A DNA stretch of 64,000 nucleotides, from NCBI GenBank assembly GCA_963786445.1, contig CAWAZU010000037.1, positions 5,809 to 69,808 of the forward strand, read 5' to 3'. Shown one piece after another: positions 14,983 through 20,180 of this stretch. The notes below the pieces were generated by a model. The model ran no database searches. It saw nothing but the letters and a program-made list of their open reading frames with translations, and had not been told where the DNA came from. Numbering within the stretch: position 1 is the first letter of the stretch; the number at the start of each line of letters is the position of its first letter. The position numbers and the translations under genes were made by a program. Origin of the DNA: an uncultured Pseudomonadota bacterium. Its GTDB lineage: Bacteria > Pseudomonadota > Alphaproteobacteria > Acetobacterales > Acetobacteraceae.

Positions 14983-15225
14983 ATGGCGGTGTTTGAGGAC
15001 ATGTTTAAGGGTGCCAGTCTGCCCGGTCTCGCGGTCGGAATTGGGGTGGCGGTGTTGGTGCCGGTTGTGCTGCCGGCGGTTGGGCGGGCCTTGCGGCCGA
15101 TCGCGAAGTCCGTCGTCCGCACCGGCATCACCGTCTGGCGCGAAGCCTCCTCCCAGATCGCGGAGAGCACCGGGCCGATCGTCGCCGAAGCACGGTCGGA
15201 GATGGCTGCTGCGCGCAAGTCATAG
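14983..15225 (+). CDS. Small membrane protein, paralog 1 (DUF5132-like, assigned from memory)
   Basis: 80 aa. MAVFEDMFKG + hydrophobic helix GLAVGIGVAVLVPVVLP + amphipathic tail ending AEARSEM. Clear paralog of the 19388-19636 ORF. Confidence 0.65.
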   Translation: MAVFEDMFKGASLPGLAVGIGVAVLVPVVLPAVGRALRPIAKSVVRTGITVWREASSQIAESTGPIVAEARSEMAAARKS

Positions 15226-15281
15226 CGTAGTGTCATCGAGATTTCGCCGCAGCGTCACGCGGCGGTCATGCCCGCGTGTTA

Positions 15282-15309
15282 GCCGCCCTCTCGGTCATGG
15301 AGAGGCGGC
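15282..15309 (+). other. GC-rich hairpin overlapping the RBS of the 15316 gene
   Basis: GCCGCCCTCTC-ggtcatg-GAGAGGCGGC (10-bp stem with one bulged C). The 3' arm contains the GGAGAGG Shine-Dalgarno-like tract, and the ATG lies 7 nt after the stem. Confidence 0.5.
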
Positions 15310-15315
15310 GCGGCG

Positions 15316-15648
15316 ATGTTTCACGTTGCTCACGAATTGCCGGGACGGTTGCGGCTGCGCTCCTCCCGGCTCCGGCGTGACCCGGTGCTGACGGAGGCGA
15401 TGGCGGCGCGGCTCCGCACGTCGCCGGGGGTACTGTCCGTCACCGTCAGCCCGCGCACCGGCAGCCTGCTGATCCACCACGACGGCGCCCCCGGCCGCGC
15501 CGACGCCCTGCGCGCCAAGTTCGCCGTCACATCCGGGGCGCAAGCGCCGGGTCGTAGCGTGGACGCAGCGGTGGAGCGGCTGACCGCGGCGCTGCTGGGA
15601 CACATGGTCGAACGCCTGCTCGGCGCGGTGGCGGCGGCGCTGATCTAG
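15316..15648 (+). CDS. Stand-alone HMA-like (HMA_2-type) domain protein without cysteines
   Basis: 110 aa. HELPGRLRLRSSRL....PGVLSVTVSPRTGSLLIHHD parallels the N-terminal domain of the neighbouring P-ATPase. It has no Cys, so no CxxC site. Confidence 0.65.
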   Translation: MFHVAHELPGRLRLRSSRLRRDPVLTEAMAARLRTSPGVLSVTVSPRTGSLLIHHDGAPGRADALRAKFAVTSGAQAPGRSVDAAVERLTAALLGHMVERLLGAVAAALI

Positions 15649-16208
15649 CCGCCGTCCCGCTTGTCCCGCGCCAGGTCGCGCGCGGCGAGGGCGTAGAACA
15701 GCAGCGACGACGCCGAGCCGAGGACCTGGCCACGGGCAAGCTGCAATACCCCGATGCCGACCAGCGCGCGCGATACCGACGGCAGGCCGAGGCGTCGGCT
15801 CGCCTGAAAGCCGTTCCAGAGCAATTCCACCGCATTGCCCGCGAAACGGCCGCGCGCAGCCTGCATCGCCCCCAGCCCGGCAAGACCGCCGGCAACCAGC
15901 GCCAGGGCCGGCAGGCGCCGCCCCGCGCGACGCGGCCTCGCGGGCACCGCGGGCGGCGTGCTGACGGCGAACAGTCCGGCCGACCGAGCCGCCGCCGCCA
16001 CCGGCGCGAAATCGCCTGCGTGGCGCACGACGAGGCTGCCGAGGCGGGGCGTCGCGGCCACCGCCGCCACGCCCGCCGCTGCGCGCAGGGCCGTCACGGC
16101 CGTCGCGAAGAAGGCCGTATCGCCGCGGCGCGCCGGCACCACGAGTCGCGTCCGCCCCGCGACCGCGTGCGCGACATGCGCTTGCGGCAGCCTGTCAGGG
16201 CCGGACAT
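15645..16208 (-). CDS. HMA-like domain protein with C-terminal transmembrane segments
   Basis: ATG at 16208 lies 7 nt after GGGAGG. N-terminal HAVAGRTRLVV....GVAAVAATPRLGSLVVRH is followed by 2-3 predicted TM helices (LALVAGGLAGLGAM..., ALVGIGVLQLA...). There is no Cys. Its stop shares a CTAG with the convergent 15316 gene. Confidence 0.6.
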   Translation of the reverse strand: MSGPDRLPQAHVAHAVAGRTRLVVPARRGDTAFFATAVTALRAAAGVAAVAATPRLGSLVVRHAGDFAPVAAAARSAGLFAVSTPPAVPARPRRAGRRLPALALVAGGLAGLGAMQAARGRFAGNAVELLWNGFQASRRLGLPSVSRALVGIGVLQLARGQVLGSASSLLFYALAARDLARDKRDGG

Positions 16209-16305
16209 GATGCGCCTCCCCGCCGAGTGTACCGGTGCCGCTGCGAACCGGTCGCATCCGGCGACGTTGAGGCGCGGGCACAAGGAATGCACTGGGGGGC
16301 CAACC

Positions 16306-16572
16306 ATGCCGCGCAGCTACGGGGCCGGACTTGCAACTGGAATCGCGATCAGCGTTATCGCCGCGGTGCTCGCGCCACTGTGGCGGCCGGCGGCGTCGCG
16401 CTATGGACGGCAGGCCGCCAAGGCGGCGCTCAAGCAAAGCATGGTCGCCTTCGAACTCGGCCGCGACCGCCTCGCCGAGGTATCCGAGACTGTCGCCGAC
16501 ATGATGGCGGAGGCACAGGTCGAACTCGCCGCCGACCGTGTGAACGGCGAAGATCCGGCCGAACCATCCTGA
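16306..16572 (+). CDS. Small membrane protein, divergent paralog 2
   Basis: 88 aa. It has an N-terminal TM helix GLATGIAISVIAAVLAP, then an amphipathic tail (AEVSETVADMMAEAQVE) with the same architecture as the 14983 and 19388 proteins. Confidence 0.5.
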   Translation: MPRSYGAGLATGIAISVIAAVLAPLWRPAASRYGRQAAKAALKQSMVAFELGRDRLAEVSETVADMMAEAQVELAADRVNGEDPAEPS

Positions 16573-16576
16573 CAGC

Positions 16577-19387
16577 TCAGATCGCCGCATCGCGCGCGCG
16601 CGCCTCGTTGACCAGATAGGGCACGAGGCCGCCGGCCAGAATCGCGGCGCTCGCGGCCGCGCCGACCGGGGTGACGCCGAGCAATCCGCGCACCCCGGGC
16701 AACAGCATCGCCGCCCCCTGCCCCGCCAGCGACAGCGCGATCGTGCCGGTCAGCACCCGGTTCGGCGCCCGCCCGACGCCGCGCGGACGGCAGGTGAAGG
16801 CGTGAAGCAACTGGGCAATGGTCAGGCTGCCGAAGGCGACGCTGCGCGCCTCCGCCCGGCCACGCACCAACAGGCTGCTCGCCAGCGCGCCGGACGCGAT
16901 CACCCCACCGTCCACGGCGAGCCGCCGCAGCGCCCTGCCGTCGATCACCGGAGCCTCCCGCGGCGGCGGCGGGCGCTGCATCAGCCCCGGCGCAGCATCC
17001 TCCGCGACCAGTGCCAAGCCGGGCATGACGTCGGAAACGAGGTTGATCCACAGCAGCTGCAAGGGCGTGAGCGCCGCCGCAGCGCCTCCGGCGGTCGCGG
17101 CCAGCACCAGCGCGATCTCGCTCAGATTGGTGCCGAGCAGGTATCTCGCGGCGCGACGCACATTCTCCCGCGCGGCGCGGCCGTGCCGCATGCCCGCCAC
17201 CACCGCCGCGAGCCCGTCGTCCTGCAGCACGATGTCGGCCACCTCGCGCGCCGCTTCGGCAGCGTTGCGGCCCATGGCGATGCCGACATCGGCCGCCTTC
17301 AGCGCCGGCCCGTCGTTCAGGCCGTCGCCTACCATGGCGACGGTGACGCCGGCGTTCTGCAGCACCTGCACGATGCGCAACTTCTGCGACGGCGTCACCC
17401 GTGCGAACACGTCGGTCTGCCGTGCCGCGGCGGCGAGGACGGCGTCGCTCAACCCATCCAGCGTGACGCCATCGATCACGCGCGGCCCGTCAGCACCGCC
17501 GAACCCGGCCGCGACCGCCACGGCCCGGGCCGTCGCGTTCTGGTCGCCAGTCAGCACCAGACAGTGCACGCCCGCCTGGCTCAACGCCGCGAGCAGCGCC
17601 GGCACCTCCGCCCGCAGCGGGTCGGATAGCCCGGCGATGCCCAGGAAGTCCAGGCGCGCAACCCGCGCCTCCGCCGCCGGCGCCAGGTGCGCGGACGCGA
17701 ACCCCAGCACCCGCAGACCCTCGCGCGCCATCGCGACGTTCCCTCGCTTGGCTTCGGCGCGGGCAGTCGGGTCGATTGCACACAGGTCGAGCACGGCGTC
17801 CGGGCTGCCCTTGACCGCAACCAAGGTGCCGCCGTCCGGCAGGGCGTGGAAGGTGGCCATGAAACGCCCGGATTCGCTGCGATGCTGCACGGACAGCCGT
17901 GGCTGCGCCGCCCGCAGCGCCGCCACGTCAAGGCCCGCCGCCTGGGCGCGCTCCAGCAGCGCCGTCTCGGTGGCGGACCCGAGCGGCGAGCCGTCGCCAT
18001 CGAGCTGCGCGTCGCTGCACAGCACACCGATTGCCAGCAGACGCCGCTCGTCGGCGGCGGCGATGGCGGCGACCGACATCAGATTGCGGGTCAGCGTGCC
18101 GGTCTTGTCGAAGCAGACCACCTGTGCCGCTCCCAGCGTCTCCAGCGCGTCGAGCCGGCGCACCAGTGCGCCCTCGCGCCGCATCGCCTCGATGCCCCGC
18201 GCGAGGGCCGCGGTGGCGACGGCGGGCAGCCCTTCCGGGATCGCAGCCACGGCAAGCGAGACCGACGTGGCGAGCGTCGGGCCGAGCGCCAGCCCGCGCA
18301 GCATGCCGATGCCGAACACCGACGCGCAGGCCAGCAGCGACACGCCGATCAGCCTTCGGCCAAGCTCCGCGAGCTGCCGTTCCATCGGCGTCGCGGGTCG
18401 CTTGGCGCTGCCCAGGAGGCGCTGGATGCGCCCCATCTCTGTCCGCGCCCCGGTCGCGACGGCGAGAGCCGTGCCGGTGCCGCCGGTGATCGCGGTGCCG
18501 CGGAAAACCATGTTGGCGCGCTCGGCAAGCGGCAGCTTCGCGCAGAGCGGGCCGGCGGTTTTCGCCACCGGCAGGCTCTCGCCGGTCAGCATGGCCTCGT
18601 TCACCGACAGTTCGCGCGCCTGCACGATCCGCGCATCGGCGGCGACCAGCGTGCCGGGACGCAACAGCAGCAGGTCACCCGGCACGACATCGGCGAACGG
18701 CACCTCGCGCGGCGCGCCGTCGCGCATCACGCGGGCGGTGGCAGAGGGCGGCCGGCTCAGGCCGGCGATGCGACGCTCCGAGCGGCTTTCCACGGCGTAG
18801 GCCAGGCCGCCGCTCAGCAGCAGCACACCGGCGATCGCCGCCGCTTCCAGCAGCGCGCCGGTGACCACAGAGAGCGTGGCGGCGCCGGCCAGCAGCAGCA
18901 CCGGCAGGGTCGCGAACTGGTCGGCGGCAATCGCGAGCGGCGGTCGCGGCTGACGCTGGTACAACGTGTTGCGGCTGACCTTCGCGAGTCGCGCCCGGGC
19001 CGCCTCGCTGCCGAGGCCATCCGTCGCCGAGGACTGCAGCGCGAGCGCCGCCGCACCGGCGTCCTGCGCCGGCCAATCCGGGTCCGCTTCGGGCGCCGCC
19101 GCGCGGCGGGCGGCCAGCTGCGCCAGCCGTCCGGCCACGCGCGCCAGCGGCAGCTCCGGATCGAACAGCACCAGGACGTTGCCCGTGCGCGCGCTCGCCG
19201 ACACGCCATGCACGCCGGGTTGCGCCGCCATACCCTGTTCGATGGCCGTGGCCAGGGCCGGCGCGCGACGCAGCTCCGTCAGGTGCAACCGCGCGCGGCC
19301 GGGAAGCGCGGCATGCACCACGCGCACACGCCGCCCGGCGCGACCGGCCGCGCCGGGCGGCGCGACCGCCCTGCCCCGCACATGCAC
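16577..19387 (-). CDS. Cation-translocating P-type ATPase (P2-like PEGLP type) with N-terminal Cys-less HMA-like domain
   Basis: 936 aa with TGES, IPEGLPAV in M4, DKTGTLT, TGDQ, MVGDGLNDGPALKAADVGIAMG and LLWINLVSD. The N-terminus is HAALPGRARLHL...RTGNVLVLFDP. There is no CPx metal motif. Confidence 0.85.
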   Translation of the reverse strand: MHVRGRAVAPPGAAGRAGRRVRVVHAALPGRARLHLTELRRAPALATAIEQGMAAQPGVHGVSASARTGNVLVLFDPELPLARVAGRLAQLAARRAAAPEADPDWPAQDAGAAALALQSSATDGLGSEAARARLAKVSRNTLYQRQPRPPLAIAADQFATLPVLLLAGAATLSVVTGALLEAAAIAGVLLLSGGLAYAVESRSERRIAGLSRPPSATARVMRDGAPREVPFADVVPGDLLLLRPGTLVAADARIVQARELSVNEAMLTGESLPVAKTAGPLCAKLPLAERANMVFRGTAITGGTGTALAVATGARTEMGRIQRLLGSAKRPATPMERQLAELGRRLIGVSLLACASVFGIGMLRGLALGPTLATSVSLAVAAIPEGLPAVATAALARGIEAMRREGALVRRLDALETLGAAQVVCFDKTGTLTRNLMSVAAIAAADERRLLAIGVLCSDAQLDGDGSPLGSATETALLERAQAAGLDVAALRAAQPRLSVQHRSESGRFMATFHALPDGGTLVAVKGSPDAVLDLCAIDPTARAEAKRGNVAMAREGLRVLGFASAHLAPAAEARVARLDFLGIAGLSDPLRAEVPALLAALSQAGVHCLVLTGDQNATARAVAVAAGFGGADGPRVIDGVTLDGLSDAVLAAAARQTDVFARVTPSQKLRIVQVLQNAGVTVAMVGDGLNDGPALKAADVGIAMGRNAAEAAREVADIVLQDDGLAAVVAGMRHGRAARENVRRAARYLLGTNLSEIALVLAATAGGAAAALTPLQLLWINLVSDVMPGLALVAEDAAPGLMQRPPPPREAPVIDGRALRRLAVDGGVIASGALASSLLVRGRAEARSVAFGSLTIAQLLHAFTCRPRGVGRAPNRVLTGTIALSLAGQGAAMLLPGVRGLLGVTPVGAAASAAILAGGLVPYLVNEARARDAAI

Positions 19388-19636
19388 TCAGACCGGCTCC
19401 GCGCTGCCCGGCTCGTGCATTTCGCTGCGCGCCTCGGCGGCGAGGTCGCTGGCGGTCTCGCTGACATAGCCGACGGCGCCCTGGACGCGGTCGTAGGCCA
19501 TCAGGCCCGCCTTGATCACCGCCTTGGCCGCCGGCCGCAGCACCGGGCGCAGGACAGGCAGCAGCACGGCCGCGCCGATCCCGACCGCGAGACCCGGACC
19601 AACTCCGCCCTCGAACATATTCTCGAACCACGCCAT
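19388..19636 (-). CDS. Small membrane protein, paralog 3 (DUF5132-like)
   Basis: 82 aa. MAWFENMFEGG...GLAVGIGAAVLLPVL...AAEARSEM. Its TGA stop is immediately followed by the ATPase ATG with a zero-nt gap. Confidence 0.7.
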   Translation of the reverse strand: MAWFENMFEGGVGPGLAVGIGAAVLLPVLRPVLRPAAKAVIKAGLMAYDRVQGAVGYVSETASDLAAEARSEMHEPGSAEPV

Positions 19637-19718
19637 GGCTTACCTCCACGCGAACAGGGAAAGCTGCAAAGGCTAGCGGCCGGCAGCCGTATTGCACGGC
19701 CCCTCACGCCGTGTTGCG

Positions 19719-20180
19719 TCACCAGTCTTCAACCAACACCTGTGCCGCTTGGTCCAGAATCGCGCGCCGACGCGGCGACGCGCGTTCCTGCGCCCGTGCC
19801 AGCGCACGACGGAAATGCGCAACGTGGCGGTGGTACCGGCTCGCAGCGTCATCGTCATTCCAGGCATAGCGCCGGGATCGTGTGCGCGCCGCCCCCTCGA
19901 ACCTCTGCACGGTTTCCCGCGCCAGTTGCTGCCGGTGTTCGCGCGTGCCGGAACCGGAGATCGTTTCCAGCAATATCTTGACGGCGGTTTCGGCAAGCTT
20001 GCTCATCGCGCCGCCCTCCGCCTCGGCCTCCGCCTCGAGAAACAAGGCGAGGCCGGATCTAAGCGCCGTGCGCAGCGGCCGCGCGAGCTGGGGCAGAATG
20101 ACCGGCAGCACCAGCGTCGCCGCACCCGCAGCCGCGAGCACCGCGATGTTGCCCTCCAGGGCGCTTTCAAACATGGCCAT
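19719..20180 (-). CDS. Membrane protein, paralog 4 with extended C-terminal region
   Basis: 153 aa. The N-terminus MAMFESALEGN + helix AAAGAATLVLPVILP matches the paralog family. The 90-aa charged C-terminal extension is unique to this copy. Confidence 0.55.
   Translation of the reverse strand: MAMFESALEGNIAVLAAAGAATLVLPVILPQLARPLRTALRSGLALFLEAEAEAEGGAMSKLAETAVKILLETISGSGTREHRQQLARETVQRFEGAARTRSRRYAWNDDDAASRYHRHVAHFRRALARAQERASPRRRAILDQAAQVLVEDW

Follow-up and report, generated by a model that had tools for sequence, protein, structure and literature searches.

DUF5132 genes, which encode small membrane proteins, lie beside genes for CoBaHMA domains so regularly that their pairing amounts almost to a rule in at least four phyla, and it is specific to loci that bear CoBaHMA. 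The arrangement is present in a seven-gene cassette at positions 14983-20180 of the window, the 64,000-nucleotide stretch of contig CAWAZU010000037.1 from an uncultured member of the Acetobacteraceae that was analyzed here. There, four related small proteins (D1 to D4) are encoded among two small CoBaHMA proteins (H1 and H2) and a P-type ATPase whose N-terminus carries a third CoBaHMA domain. On balance we lean toward a reading in which DUF5132 proteins would serve as dedicated membrane-anchored partners of CoBaHMA domains, with an acidic helix that would dock on them and assist in complex assembly. The genes are ordered D1, H1, H2, D2, ATPase, D3, D4 (strands + + - + - - -) as follows:

D1, 14983..15225, plus strand: 80-amino-acid (aa) DUF5132 protein that opens the D1-H1 pair (Pfam PF17195, 32.1 bits, E 1.2e-7)
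H1, 15316..15648, plus strand: stand-alone CoBaHMA (HMA_2) protein of 110 aa, its C-terminal helix moderately hydrophobic (PF19991, 33.6 bits)
H2, 15645..16208, minus strand: CoBaHMA protein with two Gly/Ala-rich hydrophobic segments, a FezC-like architecture (HMA_2, E 0.008)
D2, 16306..16572, plus strand: 88-aa DUF5132 protein, divergent from H2 (PF17195, 25.4 bits)
ATPase, 16577..19387, minus strand: P-type ATPase of 936 aa, P2A-like (calcium-type), whose N-terminus bears a CoBaHMA domain (Cation_ATPase_N, E1-E2, Cation_ATPase_C; HMA_2, E 6.6e-5)
Coding part of the ATPase N-terminal CoBaHMA domain, 19088..19330, minus strand: about residues 20-100, HMA_2 match at residues 24-77, signature VVHAALPGRARLH
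D3, 19388..19636, minus strand: 82-aa DUF5132 protein (PF17195, 29.4 bits)
D4, 19719..20180, minus strand: 153-aa divergent paralog with a DUF5132-like membrane module and an unrelated charged C-terminal domain of about 100 aa

Each small paralog adjoins a CoBaHMA gene. D1 precedes H1, D2 is divergent from H2, and D4 and D3 together precede the ATPase, with the stop codon of D3 meeting the GTG start of the ATPase without a spacer (19388/19387). A preliminary interpretation of the window made from its letters alone (the sequence-only reading) had placed the small proteins with the pump locus. This assignment stands. D3 abuts the ATPase, and related genomes have a DUF5132 gene immediately before the ATPase gene. 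H1 and H2 are convergent and overlap by 4 nt (15645-15648), and D2 and the ATPase are convergent with a gap of 4 nt (16572-16577). H2 has two candidate starts, at 16208 or at 16307 (the latter overlapping the start of D2), and alignment with its orthologue favors the shorter form. The flanking genes, encoding an outer-membrane protein, a Gly-rich protein, GH16 and AraC, were conserved in no related locus, so we delimit the cassette to exactly these seven genes.

All DUF5132 matches in the window genome fall in this one locus, as do all credible CoBaHMA matches, the latter being the three window domains alone. Among 41 relatives, the four genomes with a Pfam DUF5132 match were all CoBaHMA-positive, and under 500 bp separated the two genes. 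A 401-genome sample of the phylum yielded just one further DUF5132 genome (G064), in which the gene is followed, 176 bp downstream, by a CoBaHMA gene; CoBaHMA itself was more widespread, occurring in 16 of the 401. Using profiles built here, we scanned genomic contexts from Microvirga, Ensifer aridi, a Stellaceae metagenome-assembled genome (MAG), other alphaproteobacterial (Acetobacteraceae-like) MAGs, two contigs from Nitrospirota, and the single-cell genome CCP3SC1, whose source is a magnetotactic gammaproteobacterium with intracellular Ca-carbonate. Enough context was available for 15 independent loci, and 14 of them carried a DUF5132 gene or tandem array directly upstream of, and co-directional with, a gene starting with a CoBaHMA domain. 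The downstream gene encoded a P2 ATPase or a stand-alone protein, often after a spacer of 0-3 bp. These loci span Alpha- and Gammaproteobacteria and Nitrospirota, and the same arrangement was present in Thermoanaerobacterium (Bacillota).

As a control, 80 P-type ATPase loci were retrieved with generic motifs. Neither DUF5132 nor CoBaHMA was found in 77 of the 80, and the single control locus with a strong CoBaHMA match also carried DUF5132. Pairs of DUF5132 and CoBaHMA genes also occurred without an adjacent ATPase. For the pair in L107, the pump lies 97 kb away in G017; for the pair in L100 (CCP3SC1), it lies on a different contig. Because such pairs occur without a neighboring pump, the constant partner of DUF5132 is the CoBaHMA domain and not the pump. 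The proposal in the sequence-only reading that the small proteins are pump subunits is correct in that the genes sit with the pump, but it misses that their constant partner is CoBaHMA and that they are absent from the 77 ATPase loci without it.

Adjacency of the two families was previously described next to ccyA/cax in Microcystis (bioRxiv 10.1101/2024.07.07.602159). The ccyA region of Microcystis aeruginosa PCC 7806 has two genes of each family, DUF5132 and CoBaHMA in alternation, beside a Ca2+ transporter, and one of the DUF5132 genes is co-expressed with ccyA and cax (bioRxiv 10.1101/2024.07.07.602159). The Microcystis proteins also share the architecture of D1-D3, in which a transmembrane segment at the N-terminus is followed by a long C-terminal helix bearing the Pfam domain (bioRxiv 10.1101/2024.07.07.602159). 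The two regions differ in their transport components: PCC 7806 has a Ca2+/H+ exchanger and the calcyanin marker, whereas the window encodes a P2A ATPase that itself bears CoBaHMA.

The four small open reading frames (ORFs) were recognized in the sequence-only reading as homologous small membrane proteins, and BLASTP, Pfam (for three of them) and hhalign (for D4) support this. In pairwise BLASTP, D1 was 48% identical to D3 (E 1e-20), 31% identical to D2 (E 5e-9), and 31% identical to D4 across the N-terminal 52 aa (E 2e-4). That reading had also described the 16306 member (D2) as weaker and the 19719 member (D4) as sharing only its N-terminal part before an added tail, both accurately. D1, D3 and D2 all passed the 25-bit gathering cut-off of Pfam DUF5132 (PF17195 / IPR033456). 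D4 did not reach it and had no Pfam match. An alignment of three D4 orthologues did match a 43-sequence DUF5132 profile (hhalign 96.6%, E 6e-10), through residues 1-47 only. By these comparisons, D4 is best described as a homologue of the membrane module and not as a Pfam DUF5132 member. The PF17195 model covers only the C-terminal 47 positions of the family and therefore misses D4 and several true members, including the G017 copy and the second Stellaceae copy. The D4-type C-terminal domain (about 100 aa) matched no Pfam family. It contains an RY(R/H)RHVAH motif and a terminal Trp, and is encoded in the window (19719-20180) and in L089 (5638-6099), L094 (7430-7888) and L114 (4611-5069).

Neither the Pfam model nor a more sensitive full-length profile matched elsewhere in the 5.12-Mb, 86% complete assembly, in keeping with the earlier claim that the family is confined to one locus. 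Databases searched with the profile hold thousands of members: 2263 representative clusters at E<=1e-3, and 796 at E<=1e-10. Within individual clades the family is rare: 4 of the 41 relatives had a Pfam match, as did 1 of 400 further genomes from the phylum. A tblastn search of PLSDB plasmids with D3 returned a single weak Microvirga match.

The possibility that the likeness is compositional or that the ORFs are untranslated deserves mention, as a genome of 70% G+C yields many spurious Ala-rich ORFs. We regard it as effectively refuted by the sequence evidence. Besides the significant BLASTP, Pfam and hhalign scores and the thousands of family members, the four ORFs have the codon-position signature of coding sequence, with G+C at third positions (GC3) of 0.76-0.89 (0.81 in D1) against 0.51-0.54 at second positions (GC2). 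Shine-Dalgarno-like sequences precede D1 (AGGAGG), D3, H1 and H2. Ratios of nonsynonymous to synonymous substitution (dN/dS) against orthologues point to purifying selection, at 0.22-0.44 for the small ORFs (0.27-0.44 for D3, 0.26 for D4) and 0.36 for the ATPase N-terminus.

The sequence-only reading had also proposed local amplification of one small protein around the pump, which was not borne out. In a maximum-likelihood tree of the canonical copies D1, D2 and D3 with their relatives, the three fell in separate clades, and every one of these clades also holds orthologues from elsewhere. The D1 clade contains P0003 and L118 (close metagenomic relatives) and a Stellaceae copy. The D2 clade (support 100/99) contains the database representatives P0200 and P0217 and the G003 copy, which is likewise divergent from an H2-type gene. 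The D3 clade joins copies from G005 (75% identity), G003 and two further MAGs, all of which immediately precede the ATPase. D4-type genes were found in four genomes, each time upstream of a D3-type gene. Since each paralog has its own clade and its own orthologues elsewhere, the cassette holds a differentiated set and not a recent amplification. By the tree, these are ancient, position-specific paralogs.

Conservation across 43 family representatives was then read along the protein. The N-terminus is conserved as M-A-x-x-E/D, and a short amphipathic helix is followed by one hydrophobic helix and a long, probably cytosolic helix. In the hydrophobic helix, G15-x3-G19-x-G21 is conserved in 79-86% of representatives, along with prolines P27, P31 and P35. 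The GxxxG motif is present in D1 and D3 and is not kept in D2 (GIAISVI) or D4. A basic stripe (R/K34, K38, K42) and Y48 are also conserved. Beyond them lies a near-invariant acidic stripe of E57, E60, D64, E68 and E72, whose spacing puts all five on one helix face. Conservation peaks in this putatively cytosolic helix of about 40 aa and not in the transmembrane segment. AlphaFold2 monomer models of D1 and D3 contain a short helix (residues 2-9) and a single long helix (residues 12-74), with a predicted local distance difference test (pLDDT) score of 80-85.

The long helix is probably cytosolic, on the same side as the N-terminus of the P-type ATPase, because basic residues follow the hydrophobic helix. 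In some members of the family, the soluble helix module is duplicated and there is no transmembrane segment. P0133, P0174, P0184, P0234, P0259 and P0273 contain two or three tandem copies of the form RPxAK..IKGG..Y..GR...E..D..AEA..E. Such tandem soluble modules suggest that the helix is an independent interaction unit. The YtxH-like family (PF12732) has a similar plan, with a Gly/Ala-rich N-terminal membrane helix and then a charged helix; the window proteins had no match to it at E<=0.1.

The CoBaHMA domain, named HMA_2 (PF19991) in Pfam, is a Cys-free domain of the HMA superfamily that has one additional strand and a conserved patch of basic residues, and for which binding of anionic partners has been proposed. 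H1 passed the 30-bit gathering cut-off of PF19991; the ATPase N-terminus (23.3 bits) and H2 (16.6 bits) fell below it. In alignment, all three window domains share H-x3-G-R-x-R-h-+ and N/S-x-x-T-G-S. They have the hallmarks of the CoBaHMA signature, namely the beta0 His and basic beta1/beta2 residues without CxxC. The R-rich motifs are GRLRLR in H1 (signature H-x3-G-R-x-R-L-R), GRTRLV in H2 (signature VAHAVAGRTRLV) and GRARLH in the ATPase. The domains have an isoelectric point (pI) of about 12 and 0-2 Cys; H1 has a pI of 11.8 and no Cys. In H2, hydrophobic peaks occur at about residues 98-118 and 139-176, and its orthologue in G003 is 40% identical.

The best solved relatives of the ATPase are Listeria LMCA1 (E 8e-107), SPCA1 and SERCA, all of them Ca2+ pumps (E 8e-107 to 1e-87). 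Aligned with them, the window protein has IPEGLP in transmembrane segment (TM) 4, N-x-x-E (NLSE) in TM5 and N-x-x-S-D (INLVSD) in TM6. All NCBIfam equivalog scores were below cut-off. Calcium transport is plausible for this pump, given its P2A-like core, its Ca2+-pump relatives and the motifs of TM4-TM6.

Related loci differ in the genes that accompany the pump. CCP3SC1 encodes a 1072-aa CoBaHMA-P2-type ATPase (L116, G441:C185:420-3638) that is 45-46% identical to the window pump; no P-type Ca2+ pump has been identified in genomes of magnetotactic bacteria forming intracellular Ca-carbonate (PMC11773610). The Microvirga/Ensifer-type cassettes (L091, L095, L096) conserve an internal DUF445 (PF04286) gene that is absent from the window. 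In two Nitrospirota loci (L098, 12970-15122; L099, 12655-14941), the pump is preceded by a 227-267-aa protein without a Pfam match and followed by genes for an S-adenosylmethionine (SAM)-synthetase-like protein and a CDF cation-efflux protein. Across other loci, the neighbors include CDF, CNNM/CorC and Nramp cation transporters. Thermoanaerobacterium saccharolyticum (L011, 2770-8418) has two divergent CoBaHMA-ATPases of 728 and 826 aa, with one DUF5132-like gene directly upstream of the shorter ATPase and a second downstream.

The cassette has a parallel in the fez clusters of ferrosomes. There, FezA and related small proteins have a hydrophobic region with GxxxG (Grant et al., bioRxiv 10.1101/2020.01.10.902569). 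FezB, a P1B-6 ATPase, carries the motifs D[Y/F]SCA and HNxxT together with an N-terminal RxRxR, and FezC, an HMA protein, shares this R-rich motif and has two transmembrane segments (bioRxiv 10.1101/2020.01.10.902569). The cassette follows the same logic, as it encodes small GxxxG membrane proteins, an ATPase with an R-rich N-terminus and an HMA protein with two TM segments (H2), often in the same gene order. It differs in that the window pump is of P2A type with IPEGLP and contains neither DYSCA nor HNxxT, and in that the cassette has no iron-homeostasis context.

Similarity extends to the small proteins themselves. Among the CoBaHMA-positive genomes of the random sample, the ATPases of L102 (a Vibrio), L103 and L108 had both DYSCA and HNxxT, and each was directly preceded by a gene for a small protein that combines GxxxG with an acidic helix. 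These three proteins, picked by position alone, matched the DUF5132 profile (hhalign 78%, E 1.7e-5). A set of eight sequences that added equivalents from two other ATPase classes matched more strongly (hhalign 97%, E 1e-10). When 15,845 ORFs were scanned, sub-threshold DUF5132 matches were limited to D4-type paralogs and the fez-type positional candidates. Against YtxH, the fez-type proteins had sub-threshold matches (E 0.004-0.5), all far below the 37.5-bit cut-off. The small proteins of fez loci are thus probably remote homologues of DUF5132, as judged from these profile comparisons. The parallel also lends some support to membrane remodelling, which the sequence-only reading had offered as an alternative.

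In L120-L157 (36 genomes of Vibrio, Photobacterium, Shewanella, Ferrimonas and others), the DYSCA/HNxxT-type ATPase is preceded by a small protein whose C-terminus (...RGEVEELKERLEDTQAELEYYRNLHK) hardly varies and whose N-terminus is variable and rich in Tyr, Pro and Gln. Among fez-type and related loci, L102 (9229-9999), L103 (8861-9580) and L105 (8221-8520) encode proteins with long His/Pro/Met-rich N-termini (e.g. PPHMHPHAYQH...) before a GxxxG-like helix. The His/Pro/Met-rich extensions may be metal-binding tails.

For the cassette, we propose a model in which the GxxxG helix would place the DUF5132 protein in the membrane of the pump, while the acidic stripe of the conserved cytosolic helix would dock on the basic face of CoBaHMA. 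DUF5132 proteins could in this way tether the small CoBaHMA proteins and control the N-terminal regulatory head of the pump, and a multi-protein complex for export or sequestration of a divalent cation, most likely Ca2+, would assemble. Physical binding, the surfaces used and the transported ion are what we infer here.

Several observations weigh against this model. A D1-type orthologue in L118 (1999-2235; 73% identical), the sole exception to the pairing, is flanked by SpoU methylase and ABC transporter genes and has no CoBaHMA gene within 8 kb. The DUF5132:CoBaHMA copy ratio varies from 1:4 to 2:1 among loci, so the pairing is not strictly one-to-one, and no fusion of the two was found among 379 retrieved proteins. 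The CoBaHMA domains of H2 and the ATPase score under the Pfam gathering cut-off, and our own CoBaHMA model was seeded with the window sequences, which makes its E-values for those sequences circular. The monomer models show a single long helix, whose acidic stripe could pair with the basic stripe of the same protein or bind cations. A strict one-to-one stoichiometry was rejected by the copy counts, and the stoichiometric subunits of the sequence-only reading likewise find no match in copy numbers across loci.

That reading had likened the small proteins to regulins or KdpF. In such a scheme, the DUF5132 transmembrane helix would bind the membrane domain of the pump and tune its affinity or turnover, and the CoBaHMA association would be incidental. 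Sarcolipin and phospholamban act in this manner on SERCA, as does KdpF on KdpB. Like DUF5132 proteins, these are small membrane proteins with a single helix that share a locus with a P-type ATPase or act on one, and the window pump is SERCA/LMCA1-like. The abutting stop of D3 and start of the ATPase, the conserved GxxxG packing motif in the TM segment, and the position of DUF5132 or DUF5132-like genes immediately ahead of three different kinds of CoBaHMA-ATPase (P2, DYSCA/HNxxT-type and CPC-type) are all consistent with it. However, DUF5132 proteins are longer than regulins and KdpF and best conserved in the cytosolic helix instead of the transmembrane segment, and some members duplicate the soluble module with no TM segment at all. 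DUF5132 also tracks CoBaHMA, being absent from the 77 ATPase loci without that domain and preceding stand-alone CoBaHMA genes that have no adjacent pump (L098, L100, L107 and D1-H1 of the window). We therefore consider regulin-type action unlikely. A direct role in cation handling, in which the acidic stripe would capture a divalent cation such as Ca2+ at the membrane surface and pass it to the pump while CoBaHMA adjacency would reflect co-regulation only, strikes us as quite improbable. Five near-invariant acidic residues on one helix face, and the CDF, CNNM/CorC and Nramp neighbors elsewhere, would suit such a buffer or chaperone. Against it, the proteins contain no recognizable Ca-binding motif, the D1 tail is net-neutral, and the gene-by-gene pairing with CoBaHMA is left unexplained.

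The fez parallel raises a further possibility, that the cassette builds an organelle as the calcium-type counterpart of the ferrosome, with a FezA-like DUF5132 protein that shapes or marks an internal compartment and a pump that loads it with Ca2+ or another divalent cation. The architecture matches fezABC (bioRxiv 10.1101/2020.01.10.902569), the fez-type small proteins match the DUF5132 profile as described above, and DUF5132/CoBaHMA pairs occur beside ccyA in Microcystis and in the Ca-carbonate-forming CCP3SC1. Yet the pump is P2A and not P1B-6, and the characterized P2A Ca2+ pumps of bacteria are known as exporters that work across the cell membrane. The source organism has no reported inclusion, the homology to fez proteins is remote, and the window contains no Pho box of the tested consensus (CTGTCAT-N4-CTGTCAT, <=3 mismatches; 0 matches against 2.4 expected). 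We give organelle building a low probability, and for the source organism it is attractive but unsupported. The full form of the analogy, in which DUF5132 would mark or shape the compartment, CoBaHMA would dock and the pump would load the lumen, is improbable as well. The partnership of DUF5132 with CoBaHMA is the account toward which we lean.

The DUF5132 family and the CoBaHMA domain are both already known, and in the literature we found, their adjacency is described for Microcystis alone (bioRxiv 10.1101/2024.07.07.602159). Our analysis adds a near-obligate, CoBaHMA-specific coupling with controls, an ancient position-specific paralogy, and a remote link to fez-type small proteins, part of which may already be in print. 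It brings two families without a tested function under one hypothesis, in which a membrane anchor and a basic regulatory domain would together control P-type pumps. The genes behind intracellular Ca-carbonate in bacteria that have no calcyanin are an open question (ISME J 2025, PMC11773610). If the compartment reading were true, the cassette would offer candidates for the genes behind calcium storage inside the cell and carbonate biomineralization in such bacteria. A ferrosome counterpart of this kind would mean that bacteria share a genetic toolkit for ion-storage organelles, intracellular Ca-carbonate inclusions among them.

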